Assembly: GCA_000743035.1 (NCBI GenBank)
Contig: CP008936.1
Coordinates: forward strand, 120,001 to 152,000
Direction of reading: 5' to 3'
From: Candidatus Paracaedimonas acanthamoebae
GTDB taxonomy: Bacteria > Pseudomonadota > Alphaproteobacteria > Caedimonadales > Caedimonadaceae
Length of the DNA stretch: 32,000 bases
Numbering within the stretch: position 1 is the stretch's first letter; the number at the start of each line of letters is the position of its first letter. Shown in pieces: positions 3,357 to 23,571 of this stretch. The translations under genes were made by a program, and so were the position numbers. The notes beneath the pieces are model-generated. The model had not been told where the DNA came from, searched no databases, and saw only the letters and a program-made list of their open reading frames with translations.

Positions 3357-3399
3357 TCATCCCCAGCCTTGTCCCGGGGATCTCAGGCAACCTGGTGAT
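3357..3399. repeat. 43-nt REP-like palindromic element, copy 2 (left stem arm degenerate)
   Basis: TCATCCCCAGCCTTGTCCCGGGGATCTCAGGCAACCTGGTGAT, in direct orientation relative to copy 1. Confidence 0.7.
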
Positions 3400-5751: not shown

Positions 5752-5852
5752 TGATTTCTCATTTTATTTATTAATCTTTATTTATCAATTCAAGAGAATG
5801 TGTTAATATTTTTTAACTTAAAGTCATAAAATTGTTGGGACGGAGCTTATTT

Positions 5853-6326
5853 ATGAGGAATTTTCGTTGGGTTGCCTTTCGCTTATTTTTGGGTGTGTTG
5901 GGCGTACAGGCGGTAAGCGCCAGCAATCTTTATGATGATAAACTAGATCCTGAAAAGATTTCGCGACTTCAAATCCCTCTCTCTACACTCCAAATGTTAT
6001 GGGAGAATAAAAACTTATATTATGATGAACGCAGTCAGTATTACCTTACAAGAGAGCCAAAATTATGGCAGGGTAATCTTTATATGTTTTCAATCTATAA
6101 TGCTGAAAACTATGGACCATATTTTACAAACCTGAAAAATCCACAATATGGTCATAGAATACTTACACCGATTACTGTGCGCATATGGGGGAAATCTGAG
6201 AGCGAAAAAAAAGATTTTTATATAGGAACTTATGACTTTCATCATCGGTCTTTACAACACTTTAGGTTTCACATCATTACAATTGAAGCCAGCAATTTTA
6301 AAAAATTTCCCAAGAATGTAGGATAG
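5853..6326 (+). CDS. hypothetical secreted protein (N-terminal part of a longer frame broken by TAG 6324-6326)
   Basis: ATG 5853 lies 8 nt after GGACGGAG. The signal-like N-terminus is MRNFRWVAFRLFLGVLGVQAVSA/SN. I recognise no family. Confidence 0.6.
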   Translation: MRNFRWVAFRLFLGVLGVQAVSASNLYDDKLDPEKISRLQIPLSTLQMLWENKNLYYDERSQYYLTREPKLWQGNLYMFSIYNAENYGPYFTNLKNPQYGHRILTPITVRIWGKSESEKKDFYIGTYDFHHRSLQHFRFHIITIEASNFKKFPKNVG

Positions 6327-6569
6327 TATCTTATTAATCTGGGCTCAAAAAGAGGTTCGGTCTCATTAAAAAAACTTTGTAAAGCAGAATTTAAGATAGC
6401 TGAGGAAGGGCAATCTTTAGAAGATTTATTAGGTAAGAAGAAAAAATTCCCTTTCAAAAGAGAAAAGAAAAATACTAATGCTAGTTTATCCTCTTCTTCA
6501 CCTTCACAAGCCATTTCTATACAGAGTCTATCCGGACAAGAAGATTCCCCAAAGGTCTCTCAAGAGGAT

Positions 6570-6992
6570 GTGGCTATCTCTCAAAATCAGCTCTCAGAAG
6601 AATCTTTTACTCAAAAAGAAAGGAAATCATCCTCAAAACAAGAGAGAAGGAAAGGAAATATCACTCAATTAGATGAGGCCATCCAAGACTTGTTGAGTGG
6701 TGAAGAAGTACAAGCTTTGTTAGAAAGGATTAACAAAGATCAAGCACCAAAAATAGAAGAACCTGAAAAAAGCTCACTACCTTCTTCAAGCATTTTGGTT
6801 TCTTCCAAAGAGACTATTTTATCGCAAGAAATACCAATGCCAAGCTCATCAAGCCAAGAAGTCTCTGTAACTGAGCAAAATAAAGGTGATAGAATATCAT
6901 CCCCTTCTATAAGAAGAAGGAAAAATTTTGCGCTCGTGGATATGCCAGTTAAAGCTTTAGTAAAAAATGAAGTAGAAAAGTCAGAGTCTTAA
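6570..6992 (+). CDS. Ser/Glu/Lys-rich low-complexity protein segment, probably the in-frame continuation of 5853-6326 rather than an independent gene
   Basis: It is in the same frame as the upstream ORF, and all 81 codons from 6327 to 6569 are sense codons. The only possible start is GTG 6570, with no SD. The first internal ATG lies far downstream. Confidence 0.35.
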   Translation: MAISQNQLSEESFTQKERKSSSKQERRKGNITQLDEAIQDLLSGEEVQALLERINKDQAPKIEEPEKSSLPSSSILVSSKETILSQEIPMPSSSSQEVSVTEQNKGDRISSPSIRRRKNFALVDMPVKALVKNEVEKSES

Positions 6993-7237
6993 AGATATCT
7001 TTTTTACAGAAATCAGGAAAATAATATCATACTCAATATGAGGGCGCTAAGAGCTCACAAAAAGCGGCCAAAATGGTTAGTAAGTATTTGAAATAACAAG
7101 AAATAAGGATCCAATTTTTTCTGAAAATCGGGATACTTAAATCTTGCTTTTTGGAATGATTTTTGATACACTAATAAATAGGTCGGATGCCTATGTGGGT
7201 CCGATTGGGAATATCCGGCTTTTGCGGATGGTTTAAC

Positions 7238-7895: not shown

Positions 7896-8003
7896 ATGGA
7901 TCCAGTACTTGAATTAGTGCTTAAGCAAGAACAGCAATTGCTTCAACAGGATGTGCGGCACTCTATTCAGATGCTTGATACCTTATTAGTTGATAGTTTC
8001 ATA
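7896..8003 (+). pseudogene. 5' fragment (36 codons) of a DUF4440/SnoaL-like (NTF2-fold) gene interrupted by the IS-bounded cassette
   Basis: MDPVLELVLKQEQQLLQQDVRHSIQMLDTLLVDSFI ends exactly at the IS terminus at 8004. It continues in sense at 10644. Confidence 0.75.
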
Positions 8004-8109
8004 ACGCCGATTATGGATAAGAATTAACATTCCAATTGTTGAAAATCTTGTCTGAAGGCTGGTTTTATTGGTCTTAGCTGGTAAGCAATAAGGGCACAAA
8101 AGATATGAC
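8004..8109 (-). mobile_element. solo 106-bp right-end remnant of the IS982-like element, inverted
   Basis: A 106/106 nt perfect reverse complement of 10538-10643, including the 19-bp terminal IR ACGCCGATTATGGATAAGA. I checked this base by base. Confidence 0.9.
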
Positions 8110-8190
8110 GCAGCCCTCTTGAATTCCAGAAAATAGTTCCTATGTAACATAAAGAAAGATGTTTTTTATGTTACGAAGTAGGAGAATAAG

Positions 8191-9354
8191 GTGAAGAAAT
8201 TTATAAAGCTATTATTGGCAATCTCTACACCCCTGTTGGTCCATCCCCTTTATGCAAGCAACGAGATGCAAGAGGATTCTGAGAGAAGTAGTCCTAAGCG
8301 AAAAATAGAGACTCCCAAACATCATAATGAGCCTTTATCTAAAAAGCCGAGACTAGCACCAATTCAAGAGCTTCCTTTAGAGTTAATGGGCAGTCTTCCT
8401 ATAGAAGTTGTAACGCATATTACCAATTATCTTTATCTGGATCGAGACATTCCAAGCTTAGCAAATTTGGCATCTTGTTCAAAGGGTCTTCATCTGTTTC
8501 TGTCCGAGGAATATAACTTAGAAGCTATAAAAGCCTTTATAAAATTGGATCCTTCTCTTGAAGAAGGGCAGGCTTTTAGCTTATGGGAAAAAATATATTC
8601 TAAATCTCGAGGCGTACTAGAAGCTCTCTATAGAGATAAATATTATGCTGAAGAATTAGAAGGAGGAGAAGTAGATGAAGGAAATATAGACTATAGTGTG
8701 GCAAAAAATATTTCTAATTTAGAGTTGTTTTTTTATGCGCAAGGTCTTATTAGAGGCAAGCCAGAGCGAATAAGTGCAGTTCTTCAATTGCCTGAAGGCA
8801 TAGATCCAGAAGCGGATATTAAAAGAAGATCATTAGATATTTTTGGTTATCTTGAAAGAGTGAATCCAAAAGAACTTTTAGCGAGGCTCTCATCCAGAAT
8901 GGCTAGTGCAATAACTTCCGGCATAATTGTTAGCAAGCTTGGAGAAAAGGGATTCCATTGGAGAGAAAGAGCGCCTGAGCTCTATGCAAGCGATCAAGGG
9001 AAAGATATTGAAGAAATTGGTAGAGAATTAAATCTTCCGCTTCCCTATTGGGATTCTTTTTCTGACATTAGTTTTTCCGACCAACAAGACGCAGCTGATT
9101 GGTATGAGAGCTTATATGCAACCTCTCAGAGCACAGGCGCAGAAAAAGAGCAAGCCTTTGGTCATTATTTCTATCATACGCCAGGGGGAGAATACCTTAG
9201 CAGGCTAGCTGAAAATAATCCTGCCATAGGCAATTTATTTCATGACAATCGCTCTCCTCTTACCTTTCAACAACAAAAAGAATTTCTTGAAGATCTTGAA
9301 AGCTATGCTATCAATAAAATAAAAGGACTAGTTGAAAAAAATCAACAAAGTTAG
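8191..9354 (+). CDS. eukaryote-like F-box-motif protein with signal-like N-terminus and basic NLS-like stretch (candidate host-targeted effector)
   Basis: GTG start 6 nt after AGGAG. The N-terminus is MKKFIKLLLAISTPLLVHPLYA/SN. RK-x12-KKPRL fits a bipartite-NLS pattern. LPIEVVTHITNYLYLDRDIPSLANLASCSKGLHLFL fits the F-box pattern LPxE(ILV)xxxIxxxL...L..(CS)K. I do not recognise the remainder of the protein. Confidence 0.75.
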   Translation: MKKFIKLLLAISTPLLVHPLYASNEMQEDSERSSPKRKIETPKHHNEPLSKKPRLAPIQELPLELMGSLPIEVVTHITNYLYLDRDIPSLANLASCSKGLHLFLSEEYNLEAIKAFIKLDPSLEEGQAFSLWEKIYSKSRGVLEALYRDKYYAEELEGGEVDEGNIDYSVAKNISNLELFFYAQGLIRGKPERISAVLQLPEGIDPEADIKRRSLDIFGYLERVNPKELLARLSSRMASAITSGIIVSKLGEKGFHWRERAPELYASDQGKDIEEIGRELNLPLPYWDSFSDISFSDQQDAADWYESLYATSQSTGAEKEQAFGHYFYHTPGGEYLSRLAENNPAIGNLFHDNRSPLTFQQQKEFLEDLESYAINKIKGLVEKNQQS

Positions 9355-9667
9355 CAAGCTGCAGGCTTTTTAAATTTTAATTTTGTAAGCTTCTTAGAAA
9401 ATCCTGAGACTAAATAAAGTTCAAGTTGGGGGCGTTCAAGCCCTCTCCCTTCTTATCTCATTCCCTTCAAGATGAAGCAACTGTTGAGAGGAGGGCCTCT
9501 GGTTAACGCCAGTGATGATGGTGCCACCAGCCATGTCGCCACCCTCTATACGGATAAGGATTGACTATCACTGCAGGATAAGGGGCCACAATTACTGCGG
9601 GCTCTCGCTCAACGATCATAGGATTGGAAGATTCAAGGCAGGCACTGTACTGCCGCTCGCAACTATT

Positions 9668-10643
9668 ACGCCGATTATGGATAAGATAGTTTTGGAAAAG
9701 GGTTAAAAGGTGGGATTATCCAAGTAAGTAGAACAAAGAAAGGATAATCCCGATGATAGATTACGGCAGTTTATTCTATTTTGTAGATGAATTTTCTAAA
9801 GCCTTCAATAATTGGTGGAATAAAAGCCTATTAGCTTCTTCTACCAAGAGAAGAAACCGATCAACGAAGCTTCATTTAAGCGAGATTATTACAATTATGA
9901 TTTCCTATCATGACTCAGGCTATCGTTGTTTTAAAGATTACTACGATTATGTGCTATTTTATCATCTGAGAGAATTTCCTTGTCTTGTAATTTATGAGCG
10001 TTTCGTTGCTTTAATGAAAAGAGCTCTGCCTATTGTTTTAATGTTGTTTGCAGCTCTCAGAGGAGAGGCAACAGATATTCTATTTGTTGATTCAACTCCC
10101 TATGAAGTTTGTAGGACAGCAAGAAGGTATGACCATAAAGTCTTTAAAGGGTTATCAGCTTTATCAAAGAACTCTCTTGGTTGGTTTTACGGGTTGAAGC
10201 TTCATTTTATCTTTAATGATAAGGGGAGCATTGCCCGGTTAAGTATTACACCAGCTGATGTGGATGATCGTAAGGGATTAAAATCGCCCATTAAGGATTT
10301 GATGGGCAAGATGTTTGGTGACAGAGGATATCTAGGAGAAGACTTTTTTAAAGACCTTTGGAGCCAAGGTATTCAAATGGTTACTAAGATTCGTAAAAAC
10401 ATGAAAAAACAAGCTTATGTCACTGTGGGATCGCTTCTATTTAAATAAGAGAATGACAGTAGAAACTATTTTCTCTTCTTTGAAGTCCTGTGGGACTTTT
10501 GAGCATTCAAGGCACCGTAGTGTCCTTAATGCTTTCTGTCATATCTTTTGTGCCCTTATTGCTTACCAGCTAAGACCAATAAAACCAGCCTTCAGACAAG
10601 ATTTTCAACAATTGGAATGTTAATTCTTATCCATAATCGGCGT
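9668..10643 (+). mobile_element. IS982-family-like insertion sequence (976 bp) with perfect 19-bp terminal inverted repeats
   Basis: IRL 9668-9686 is ACGCCGATTATGGATAAGA and IRR 10625-10643 is its exact reverse complement. It encodes a single DDE transposase of ~290 aa. The size, the AC-starting ends and the one-ORF layout fit IS982. Confidence 0.85.
9753..10623 (+). pseudogene. IS982-family DDE transposase, frameshifted in an A6 run
   Basis: Contains VDSTPYEVC...GWFYGLKLHFIFNDKG...GDRGYLGEDF and a C-terminal RMTVETIFSSLK. Frame 0 (9753-10448) and frame +1 (10417-10623) join at ATGAAAAAAC (A-run 10404-10409). Confidence 0.85.
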
Positions 10644-10889
10644 TTTATAGAAATTGGGAGTTCTGGAAGGCGGTATACGAAGGCAGATGTGCTCCAAGCT
10701 TTACCGCTTGAGACTAGCATGACAATAGAGGCAACCGATTTTGAGGTTCGATTTTTAAGGAAAGATTTAATTTTAGTCATCTATCGTGCTTTACAAAGTG
10801 GGGAAAATAAGTCATCCCTTAGGAGCTCTTTGTGGAAGCAGACAGAAGAAGGGTGGAGAATAGTCTTTCATCAAGGGACGCCTTTGTAG
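10644..10889 (+). pseudogene. 3' fragment (81 codons plus stop) of the same DUF4440/SnoaL-like gene
   Basis: FIEIGSSGRRYTKADVLQAL...FEVRFLRKDLILVIYRA...SLRSSLWKQTEEGWRIVFHQGTPL matches the DUF4440 C-terminal pattern (GSSG...RSS.W...W...FHQGT). The track ORF 10548-10889 is a chimera that starts inside the IS. Confidence 0.75.
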
Positions 10890-19569: not shown

Positions 19570-19763
19570 TTCTTGCCTTTTCACCAGGAAAAGAGAAAAT
19601 ATTCACTCAAAAAGAGCGTTTAAAGGGTTGTTTTTAATAACTTAGGTTTTGTTATTCCCTATTTTATTATTCTTTTTTCTTAGAAGGTTTCAGAGAAGGA
19701 AGGGAAAGAATTACTGGGGTATCGGAATATCCAATAAGAGAAGACTCCCTCTCTGACCATCTA
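19570..19763 (-). repeat. dispersed ~194-nt intergenic repeat, copy B (inverted relative to copy A)
   Basis: Its reverse complement aligns with 2297-2490. It lies 117-310 nt upstream of gatC, in the same orientation as the gatCAB-atp gene string. Confidence 0.6.
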
Positions 19764-22712: not shown

Positions 22713-23036
22713 TTATTTAGCTTCCCTTGATTTATTTCTACGAGCATTGCCACCTTCACGACCCATGCGTGCATAACCTTCTGGGCCTAACTGCTTTTTT
22801 CGAGCTTCTCCGCCCATATGACCTAGCTCAACATAACCTTCATGACCAAGCTGGCGTTTTCTCTCTTCGCCGCCTTTTTGTCCTCGCTCGGACATACCTT
22901 CATGGCCAGCTTTTTCGGCGCTTGCTAATCCACCTTGACGCGCAATTTTTTGCACTTTTTCATGAGGCATTGAAGCAAAACCACGTTTGGAAGTGTTGAA
23001 GCTTTGGGTTTGTTTGTTGCGATTATTTTGTGCCAT
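22713..23036 (-). CDS. KGG-repeat general stress-induced protein
   Basis: Repeated QKGGEERKRQLGHEGY / HMGGEARKKQLGPEGY / REGGNARRNK modules. ATG 23036 is preceded by AAGGAGAG. The track start at 23066 is a TTG. Confidence 0.85.
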   Translation of the reverse strand: MAQNNRNKQTQSFNTSKRGFASMPHEKVQKIARQGGLASAEKAGHEGMSERGQKGGEERKRQLGHEGYVELGHMGGEARKKQLGPEGYARMGREGGNARRNKSREAK

Positions 23037-23571
23037 TTTTCTCTCCTTTGATATTTGGGTGACCAAAGAAAGGGATAGTCAGTAACAGCTTTCGTGGAAG
23101 TAAAGGTCGCTATTCAGAGACCTTAGAAGTATTGTGTTCCTGAATCCCCTTTCTTGCAAGGAATAGAGTTGCAAAAGCTAACAATATGTTCCTTTTGTGT
23201 GCGCCCAAGTCACTGATATTGGTAAGGCTCTCTTTGATTTCTTAACTGCTTGCTTAGTTATATTGCGAAAATAGGAATAATTTCTTCTATAAATGCGAAT
23301 ATAATAAGTACAAGTTTTTCCAATCCATTATTCGTGTCGCACACTAACGCATTTTAAGACGCGTTAATAAAATTTTATAATCCTCAAACCTGAGAGGCTA
23401 GTTGAAATAGAGTTTATTTTGCGCCTACGGAGTTGCTATAAGTATTGAAGTGGATAGTTCTTATTGTAACTACTTTGAATAGGGAAGAGGTTTGTTTGGA
23501 GTGTAGCTTTGTATGACTCTGAAGCTCCCTGGTTCAATTGAGTCCCTCTTTTAAAATAATTTAATGGATGC

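Follow-up and report, generated by a model that had tools for sequence, protein, structure and literature searches.

A cargo gene bracketed by IS982-family ends within a DUF4440 gene of Candidatus Paracaedimonas acanthamoebae: a probable composite insertion exchanged between lineages

Candidatus Paracaedimonas acanthamoebae is a cytoplasmic symbiont of Acanthamoeba with a genome of 1.7 Mb (PMC11909080). In a 32,000-nt stretch of its genome (contig CP008936.1, positions 120,001 to 152,000; hereafter the window, in whose coordinates positions are given), a cassette of 2,640 bp (8004-10643) splits a chromosomal gene of the DUF4440 family flanked by ibpA and ccmC. The cassette carries a full-length insertion sequence (IS) of the IS982 family, a cargo gene and the inverted terminal fragment of a second copy of the same IS. 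The same arrangement is found in a second lineage, represented by a metagenome-assembled genome (MAG), and the cassette is 98.5% identical overall between the two lineages as against 81-90% for the flanking core genes. The best explanation of these observations as a whole is a composite insertion, after which the lineages exchanged the interrupted allele through homologous recombination; we assign this reading a probability of about 0.72. The features of the cassette and their conservation are listed in Table 1, where both GenBank locus tags (IM40_00635 for the cargo protein and IM40_00650 for the open reading frame (ORF) 10548-10889) are those of Candidatus Paracaedimonas acanthamoebae.

Table 1. 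Features of the cassette and its borders, with nucleotide identity between the two lineages
Feature	Position	Strand	Identity between lineages	Remarks
ibpA			90.2%	
ibpA-DUF4440 spacer			77%	
N-terminal 36 codons of the interrupted DUF4440 gene	7896-8003	+	100% (7927-8003)	joined protein spans the whole of PF14534; colinear with homologues P0002-P0005
Left target-site duplication copy, TTCATA (or 7 bp, TTTCATA, from 7997)	7998-8003			identical in MAG lineage
Terminal 106 bp of inverted second IS982-family copy (right end; 19-nt inverted repeat 8004-8022)	8004-8109	-	100%	100% reverse complement of 10538-10643
Possible extra patches of decayed left IS copy	8128-8180	-		8128-8145 versus IS 10474-10456; ~8160-8180 versus IS 10412-10390
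Imperfect palindrome, 13 nt	8144-8174			just upstream of cargo ribosome-binding site
Cargo gene, 387-aa protein, IM40_00635	8191-9354	+	98.5%	no homologue outside the two lineages; ORF intact in four variants
Non-coding cargo spacer	9355-9667		98.4%	no Rfam or Pfam match
Full-length IS982-family IS, 976 bp	9668-10643	+	98.5%	left inverted repeat 9668-9686, right inverted repeat 10625-10643; perfect 19-nt repeats ACGCCGATTATGGATAAGA
Transposase gene, split into two ORFs	9753-10623	+		ORFs 9753-10448 and 10417-10623; one extra A in run 10404-10409
Right target-site duplication copy, TTTATA	10644-10649			junction sequence
C-terminal 81 codons and stop of the interrupted DUF4440 gene	10644-10889	+	95.5%	annotated in GenBank as IM40_00650, with a start at 10548 within the IS
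ccmC			85.1%	
ccmD			81.7%	
ccmE			84.8%	
ccmF			85.3%	

Anatomy of the cassette and its insertion site

Joining 7896-8003 to 10650-10889 yields a 115-aa protein that matches the DUF4440 (NTF2-like) profile PF14534 over its entire length (positions 1-107 of 107, 55.6 bits against a cutoff of 25.2, E-value = 8e−15); the right half alone scores 38.9 bits. The joined protein is colinear with four full-length homologues (119-126 aa, one of them from Legionella pneumophila), and the alignment is free of gaps at the junction. The first-pass annotation of the window had taken the 36 codons on the left and the 81 codons on the right for two halves of one DUF4440 protein, and both the profile match and the alignments bear this out. 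The insertion point lies inside FIEIGSS, an invariant motif of DUF4440 homologues: the left half ends with DSFI and the right half starts with FIEIG, Phe-Ile being doubled as TTC ATA and TTT ATA. Because both hexamers encode Phe-Ile, which is present once in the homologues, the target duplication is real, and the 5/6 direct repeat that had been pointed out at the junctions is indeed there. The junction may represent either a 7-bp duplication of TTTCATA whose right copy has dropped the C or a duplication of 6 bp in which one position underwent a C/T substitution; one mutation separates the two copies under either interpretation. A 7-bp duplication with one lost base is conceivable here because a related IS, found on metagenome contigs L017 and L018 and bounded by inverted repeats ACGCGAACTATGGATAAGG, makes a perfect 7-bp duplication (TTCTAAC).

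At both borders of the cassette, the target gene abuts the same IS end. A repeat finder reports two arms, 8003-8109 and 10538-10644, of 107 nt and 100% complementary, i.e. 106 nt plus one chance flanking base, and these form the only long repeat of the 32-kb window. The claim that the left arm is a perfect (106/106) reverse complement of the right end of the IS was therefore accurate. The left fragment begins with the 19-mer that serves as the terminal inverted repeat of the IS, ACGCCGATTATGGATAAGA, and identical right ends point outward on either side. The full-length IS has no duplication of its own (its left flank is AACTATT and its right flank TTTATAG). Two copies of one IS thus bracket the cargo with equivalent ends outward, and the target duplication flanks the whole unit, not the individual IS. 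We infer the transposition mechanism from this directly readable anatomy, and the best model is transposition of the composite type, the sole simple route by which each half of the target comes to abut a right IS end. Insertion of a single IS was rejected, as it would join one target half to the left IS end, and so was intramolecular replicative inversion, which would likewise give a left IS end at one half.

According to this model, the mobile unit would have consisted of an inverted IS copy, a cargo segment of 1.56 kb and a direct IS copy. In a single transposition event, the transposase would have joined the two right IS ends to the target, with 6-7 bp of the FIEIGSS motif being duplicated. 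The left IS copy would later have been reduced to its terminal 106 bp and small patches, probably by several deletions, and the transposase of the right copy is broken as well, by the extra A in the window and by deletions of 177 bp and 11 bp in the related lineage.

The first-pass annotation had also proposed a composite transposon whose left copy was truncated afterwards. The composite anatomy stands, but several deletions seem likelier than a single cut. Between the left arm and the cargo gene there are 81 bp with what look like colinear remnants from further inside the IS, inverted in the same way as the arm (8128-8145 and ~8160-8180); the first of these is exact (15/15) in the allele of the MAG lineage, and the score of the chained patches was equalled by only 1-7 of 500 shuffles, which amounts to marginal support. 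The patches suggest, with moderate confidence, that the left copy shrank stepwise and was not truncated at once. Alternatively, the unit might never have been a full composite of two IS: as a pseudo-composite, akin to a mobile insertion cassette, the IS might have transposed in its present form together with a solo right end that had already been truncated, which would make the truncation older than the insertion. The transposase of DDE elements normally needs as substrate only the terminal inverted repeat and nearby bases, so a solo end of this kind would normally suffice; moreover, both lineages have exactly the same 106-bp arm, and the truncation at least predates their exchange. Against this, the internal patches fit a longer copy that decayed little by little through deletions, and the truncated form was not seen at any other place that would show movement in such a form. 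We consider this alternative unlikely.

Two further observations concern the left arm and the sequence next to it. The imperfect palindrome at 8144-8174 (GTAACATAAAGAA / TTTTTTATGTTAC) overlaps a possible IS-derived patch. Some strains of the MAG lineage have an IS3-family element (NF033516, E-value = 9e−41) within the 106-bp arm, at window position 8094/8095. It was seen on contigs L012 (1-419) and L013 (1-127), both of which terminate within the IS3 element, as expected for a multi-copy IS.

The assignment of the full-length element to the IS982 family is based on its transposase, length and ends. Deleting one A from the A6 run at 10404-10409 undoes a +1 frameshift and restores a 289-aa transposase, which scores 214.1 bits on NCBIfam NF033520 (IS982 family transposase, cutoff 130); in addition, the first ORF of the split gene matches PF13612 with 144.5 bits. 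The element thus combines a match to the DDE transposase model of the family with a length of ~1 kb and terminal inverted repeats in the range of ~18-35 bp that begin with AC. The window copy lacks the single uninterrupted transposase ORF of a functional element; this is a matter of activity, not of family membership. For comparison, ISLll1 of the same family is 999 bp long, encodes a 296-aa DDE transposase and has 20-bp terminal inverted repeats starting with ACCC (PMC13339394). The window element resembles it in size (976 bp), in its perfect 19-bp repeats starting with AC and in its 289-aa DDE transposase when restored, but differs in that its transposase is frameshifted. The nearest intact transposases, single ORFs of 291 aa, are 77-78% identical, and a set of 5.8 billion protein clusters contains no transposase of more than 78% identity; an exact-sequence look-up returned no recorded gene product for the window transposase ORF. 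As no intact relative comes closer than 77-78% identity, the IS represents an undescribed and apparently extinct IS species. A related IS982-family element with a transposase 78% identical (contig L015, 423-3346) bears a group II intron reverse transcriptase (RVT_1 and GIIM), located between its left inverted repeat and its transposase gene.

In the MAG lineage the A run has five residues, yet the transposase gene carries deletions of 177 bp (window 9758-9934) and 11 bp (10474-10484). As the lesions are specific to each lineage, and hence independent, the transposase was probably intact in the last common ancestor of the two cassette copies and became disabled after they diverged. The element is now best described as a fossil, given the frameshift, the deletions in the MAG lineage, the distance of 22-23% from intact relatives and the presence of the IS end only at this locus, both in a scan of one genome per species and in a scan of metagenomes. 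Short-read assemblies pass straight through the IS982 element unbroken, which argues against many copies. A plasmid collection contained nothing similar, even when searched in distant mode.

Composite transposons of the Tn10/Tn5 type offer the closest parallel. They too have inverted IS copies around their cargo, with the same type of IS end pointing outward at either border, a short duplication of the target around the whole unit and an inactivated target gene. Unlike in these transposons, the IS of the cassette belongs to the IS982 and not the IS4 family, one of the IS copies is down to 106 bp plus patches, the surviving transposase is frameshifted, the cargo is a gene without known homologues in place of a resistance gene, and no second copy attests to mobility. 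Mobile insertion cassettes and MITE-like (miniature inverted-repeat transposable element) units, which are bounded by inverted repeats and mobilised in trans, resemble it in that a short IS-end fragment forms one boundary of a cargo-bearing unit. In contrast to such units, a complete IS with a formerly intact transposase is present here and mobilisation in trans is not required.

The interrupted allele in a second lineage

In the scan of one genome per species, for which a 44-nt IS end was used as a query, the sole genome match was the MAG Caedibacter sp. 38-128. It has the cassette at the same place, in the order HSP20, N-terminal half of DUF4440, cargo, IS982, C-terminal half of DUF4440 and CcmC, and the same arrangement occurs on more than 20 independently assembled metagenome contigs from several studies. 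A complete genome, NCBI MAGs and these contigs all show one structure, which excludes an assembly artefact. The two lineages agree exactly in their junctions, in the 106-bp arm and in the imperfect duplication.

The profile of identity along the locus is step-like (Table 1), and synonymous divergence (dS) follows the same pattern, being 0.025 for the cargo gene as against 0.78 for ccmC, 0.50 for ccmE and 0.67 for ccmF. Conservation 20-30 times better than that of the silent sites of neighbouring core genes is not possible for pseudogene and non-coding DNA, which means that the cassette and part of DUF4440 share a much younger ancestor than their surroundings. The 5′ end of DUF4440 is lineage-specific, with a 12-bp indel at 7899-7910, and the gene accordingly already occupied this locus in both lineages when the exchange took place. 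The simplest reading, as far as the sequences can tell, is that of one insertion followed by transfer of the allele, in which the interrupted gene with adjacent DUF4440 sequence would have crossed lineages by homologous recombination (allelic replacement) and not by a second transposition. Since the movement that is visible brought flanking DUF4440 sequence along, it points to homologous recombination rather than transposition. The passage of the cassette between lineages was probably recent. The locus had earlier been called a direct trace of how effectors move; movement between lineages is indeed seen, but a second copy of the cassette or of its IS end is not, the transposase is broken, and the route was apparently homologous recombination.

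The site, the junctions and the truncation common to both lineages could also be explained by vertical inheritance from a common ancestor, with the cassette appearing young through slow evolution or homogenisation. However, the presumably neutral IS pseudogene and the spacer are 98.4-98.5% identical as against 77% for the ibpA-DUF4440 spacer, dS in the flanks is 0.5-0.8, and no other copy is known that could have acted as a donor for conversion, which makes vertical inheritance very improbable. An active, site-specific transposon could also have hit the same target twice, once in each lineage. This would be compatible with a transposase that, judging by its lineage-specific lesions, was probably intact when the cassette copies diverged, but would leave the identical imperfect duplication and left-arm truncation to coincidence. 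Furthermore, all 77 bp of the adjacent target sequence at 7927-8003 agree between the lineages (100% identity), although divergence of ~10% or more would be expected there. We regard independent insertions as hardly conceivable.

Several observations weigh against a composite insertion followed by a single allelic exchange. The target-site duplication is imperfect. No uninterrupted close DUF4440 allele (empty site) turned up in the homologue search, and the collections searched held neither the cassette nor the cargo gene at a second site, so that the case for mobility as a unit is an anatomical one; extra degraded copies within the complete P. acanthamoebae genome are possible. The C-terminal half of DUF4440 is 95.5% identical, and its 11 mismatches are all located from 10689 onward, where divergence amounts to 5.5%. 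This value is not accounted for by a single clean tract of recombination, and a divergence intermediate between that of the cassette and that of the core genes suggests a mosaic of recombination tracts. Finally, the borders (7927-8114 and 10518-10688) have no mismatches in 359 bp, in contrast to 37 in 2,214 bp (1.67%) of the interior, a difference with P of ~0.0025 that was computed post hoc and includes the short DUF4440 flanks.

The mechanisms invoked here are not new: IS-mediated gene disruption, composite transposons and recombination among intracellular bacteria are already well known. What is new is the probable recent exchange of an interrupted allele between lineages. The locus offers a clean record of how an obligate symbiont of amoebae acquired an accessory gene within its conserved core chromosome, and the step in identity (98.5% inside, 77-90% outside) points to the later spread of the allele across diverged lineages by recombination, which is relevant to the degree of isolation of such endosymbiont populations.

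The cargo gene and the F-box question

The cargo gene starts with GTG, and its protein has no homologues beyond its orthologue, either in a word-indexed search of 5.8 billion clusters or in a phmmer search of 1.84 billion representatives; the sole non-orthologous phmmer hit (P0134) was rejected as a spurious match inflated by repeats. PHROGs, PADLOC and NCBIfam gave no match to the cargo (NCBIfam gave none for DUF4440 either), and comparison of the whole protein and of its 70-aa motif region with sequences of solved structures produced only noise. An AlphaFold model, built from an alignment of four sequences, is unusable, with a mean predicted local distance difference test (pLDDT) score of 38.6 and ~30 in the motif region.

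Nevertheless, the gene is probably maintained by selection. Over four variants its ORF of 1,164 bp is free of indels and stops, as against five indel events in the 1,371 bp of IS and non-coding DNA that make up the rest of the cassette. From these rates ~4.2 indels would be expected in the ORF, and by our own arithmetic the probability of finding none is ~0.015. The ratio of nonsynonymous to synonymous substitution rates (dN/dS) is ~0.48 on 17 substitutions. A promoter scan upstream of the gene found no plus-strand sigma-70-like site. One might speculate that the cargo gene, being co-oriented with DUF4440, is transcribed by read-through from the DUF4440 promoter.

The first-pass annotation described the cargo as an F-box-like, eukaryote-like effector, a description that the profile, homology and structure searches do not sustain. 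Residues ~65-105 match three families of the F-box clan: PF12937 with 14.3-16.0 bits (cutoff 24.3), PF00646 with 12.4 bits (cutoff 20.5) and PF15966 with 12.6 bits (cutoff 32), each below its gathering score; the library-wide E-value is 0.01-0.035. The weak F-box-like motif itself occupies residues ~67-105. F-box effectors are found in other amoeba-associated bacteria, e.g. AnkB/LegU1 of Legionella and the F-box proteins of Amoebophilus. Like them, the cargo comes from an amoeba symbiont and has an LPxE...L...K motif close to the N-terminus; unlike them, it scores below threshold, has no homologues and bears a putative Sec-type signal peptide, and can only be a putative member of this group. 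It might be a genuine exported F-box protein that recruits the SCF ubiquitin ligase of the amoeba in the manner of Legionella AnkB. In favour of this are the convergence of three F-box-clan Pfam families on one stretch, a motif discernible by eye (LPxE..I..YL...DI..L....SK) and the ORF being intact in all variants. The sub-threshold scores, the absence of homologues and of a match to a solved structure, and the low pLDDT of 38.6 argue against it. So does the N-terminus, MKKFIKLLLAISTPLLVHPLYA followed by SN, which to the eye looks like a Sec signal peptide; such a signal is untypical of the bacterial F-box effectors known so far, these being substrates of type IV secretion. On balance, the F-box assignment is possible, with the odds slightly against it.

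A broader and more doubtful possibility is that the cargo is a young host-directed secreted protein, which would have been delivered by the IS982 composite and would then have swept diverged Paracaedimonas lineages by homologous recombination. This idea draws on the Sec signal, the degenerate F-box and a basic stretch, KRKIETPKHHNEPLSKKPR (KRK...KKPR), that by eye resembles a nuclear localisation signal. If it is true, the locus would show directly that adaptive alleles still pass between obligate intracellular symbionts of amoebae when these share hosts.

The spacer downstream of the cargo gene contains, on the minus strand, an ORF of 38 aa (9503-9619) with a His/Trp-rich tail, RGWRHGWWHHHHWR, and no family match. 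In one metagenome contig a gene has been called at the corresponding position.

Surroundings of the cassette

The remainder of the window is core chromosome: it encodes cox, ctaG, the H+-pyrophosphatase (H+-PPase), ibpA, ccmCDEF, atp, gatCAB, ubiE, mutM, dnaG and rpoD. Rfam models at the gathering threshold have no match anywhere in the window.

The interval between the H+-PPase gene and ibpA (5864-7139) is not alignable between the two lineages, its counterpart in the MAG lineage being contig L003, 2865-4962. The ORFs it contains differ as well (5832-6326 and 6570-6992 in the window; 394-401 aa and 182 aa in the MAG lineage), and no family matches were found for those of either lineage. The interval is a second variable spot within a core region that is syntenic elsewhere.

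Two families of short dispersed repeats occupy intergenic regions. Members of the first are ~140 nt long, ~78% identical and inverted (2340-2480 versus 19580-19720). The second is a 43-nt unit with 95% identity (2545-2587 versus 3357-3399) and a CCCCGGG...CCCGGGG hairpin. Both may be MITE-like or similar to repetitive extragenic palindromes (REP).

The minus strand at 22713-23066 encodes a small protein with matches to LEA_5, a plant seed protein family, and to the KGG stress repeat. Its gene adjoins that of a DUF2383/DUF892 protein, and the two look like a pair of small stress proteins in an obligate symbiont.

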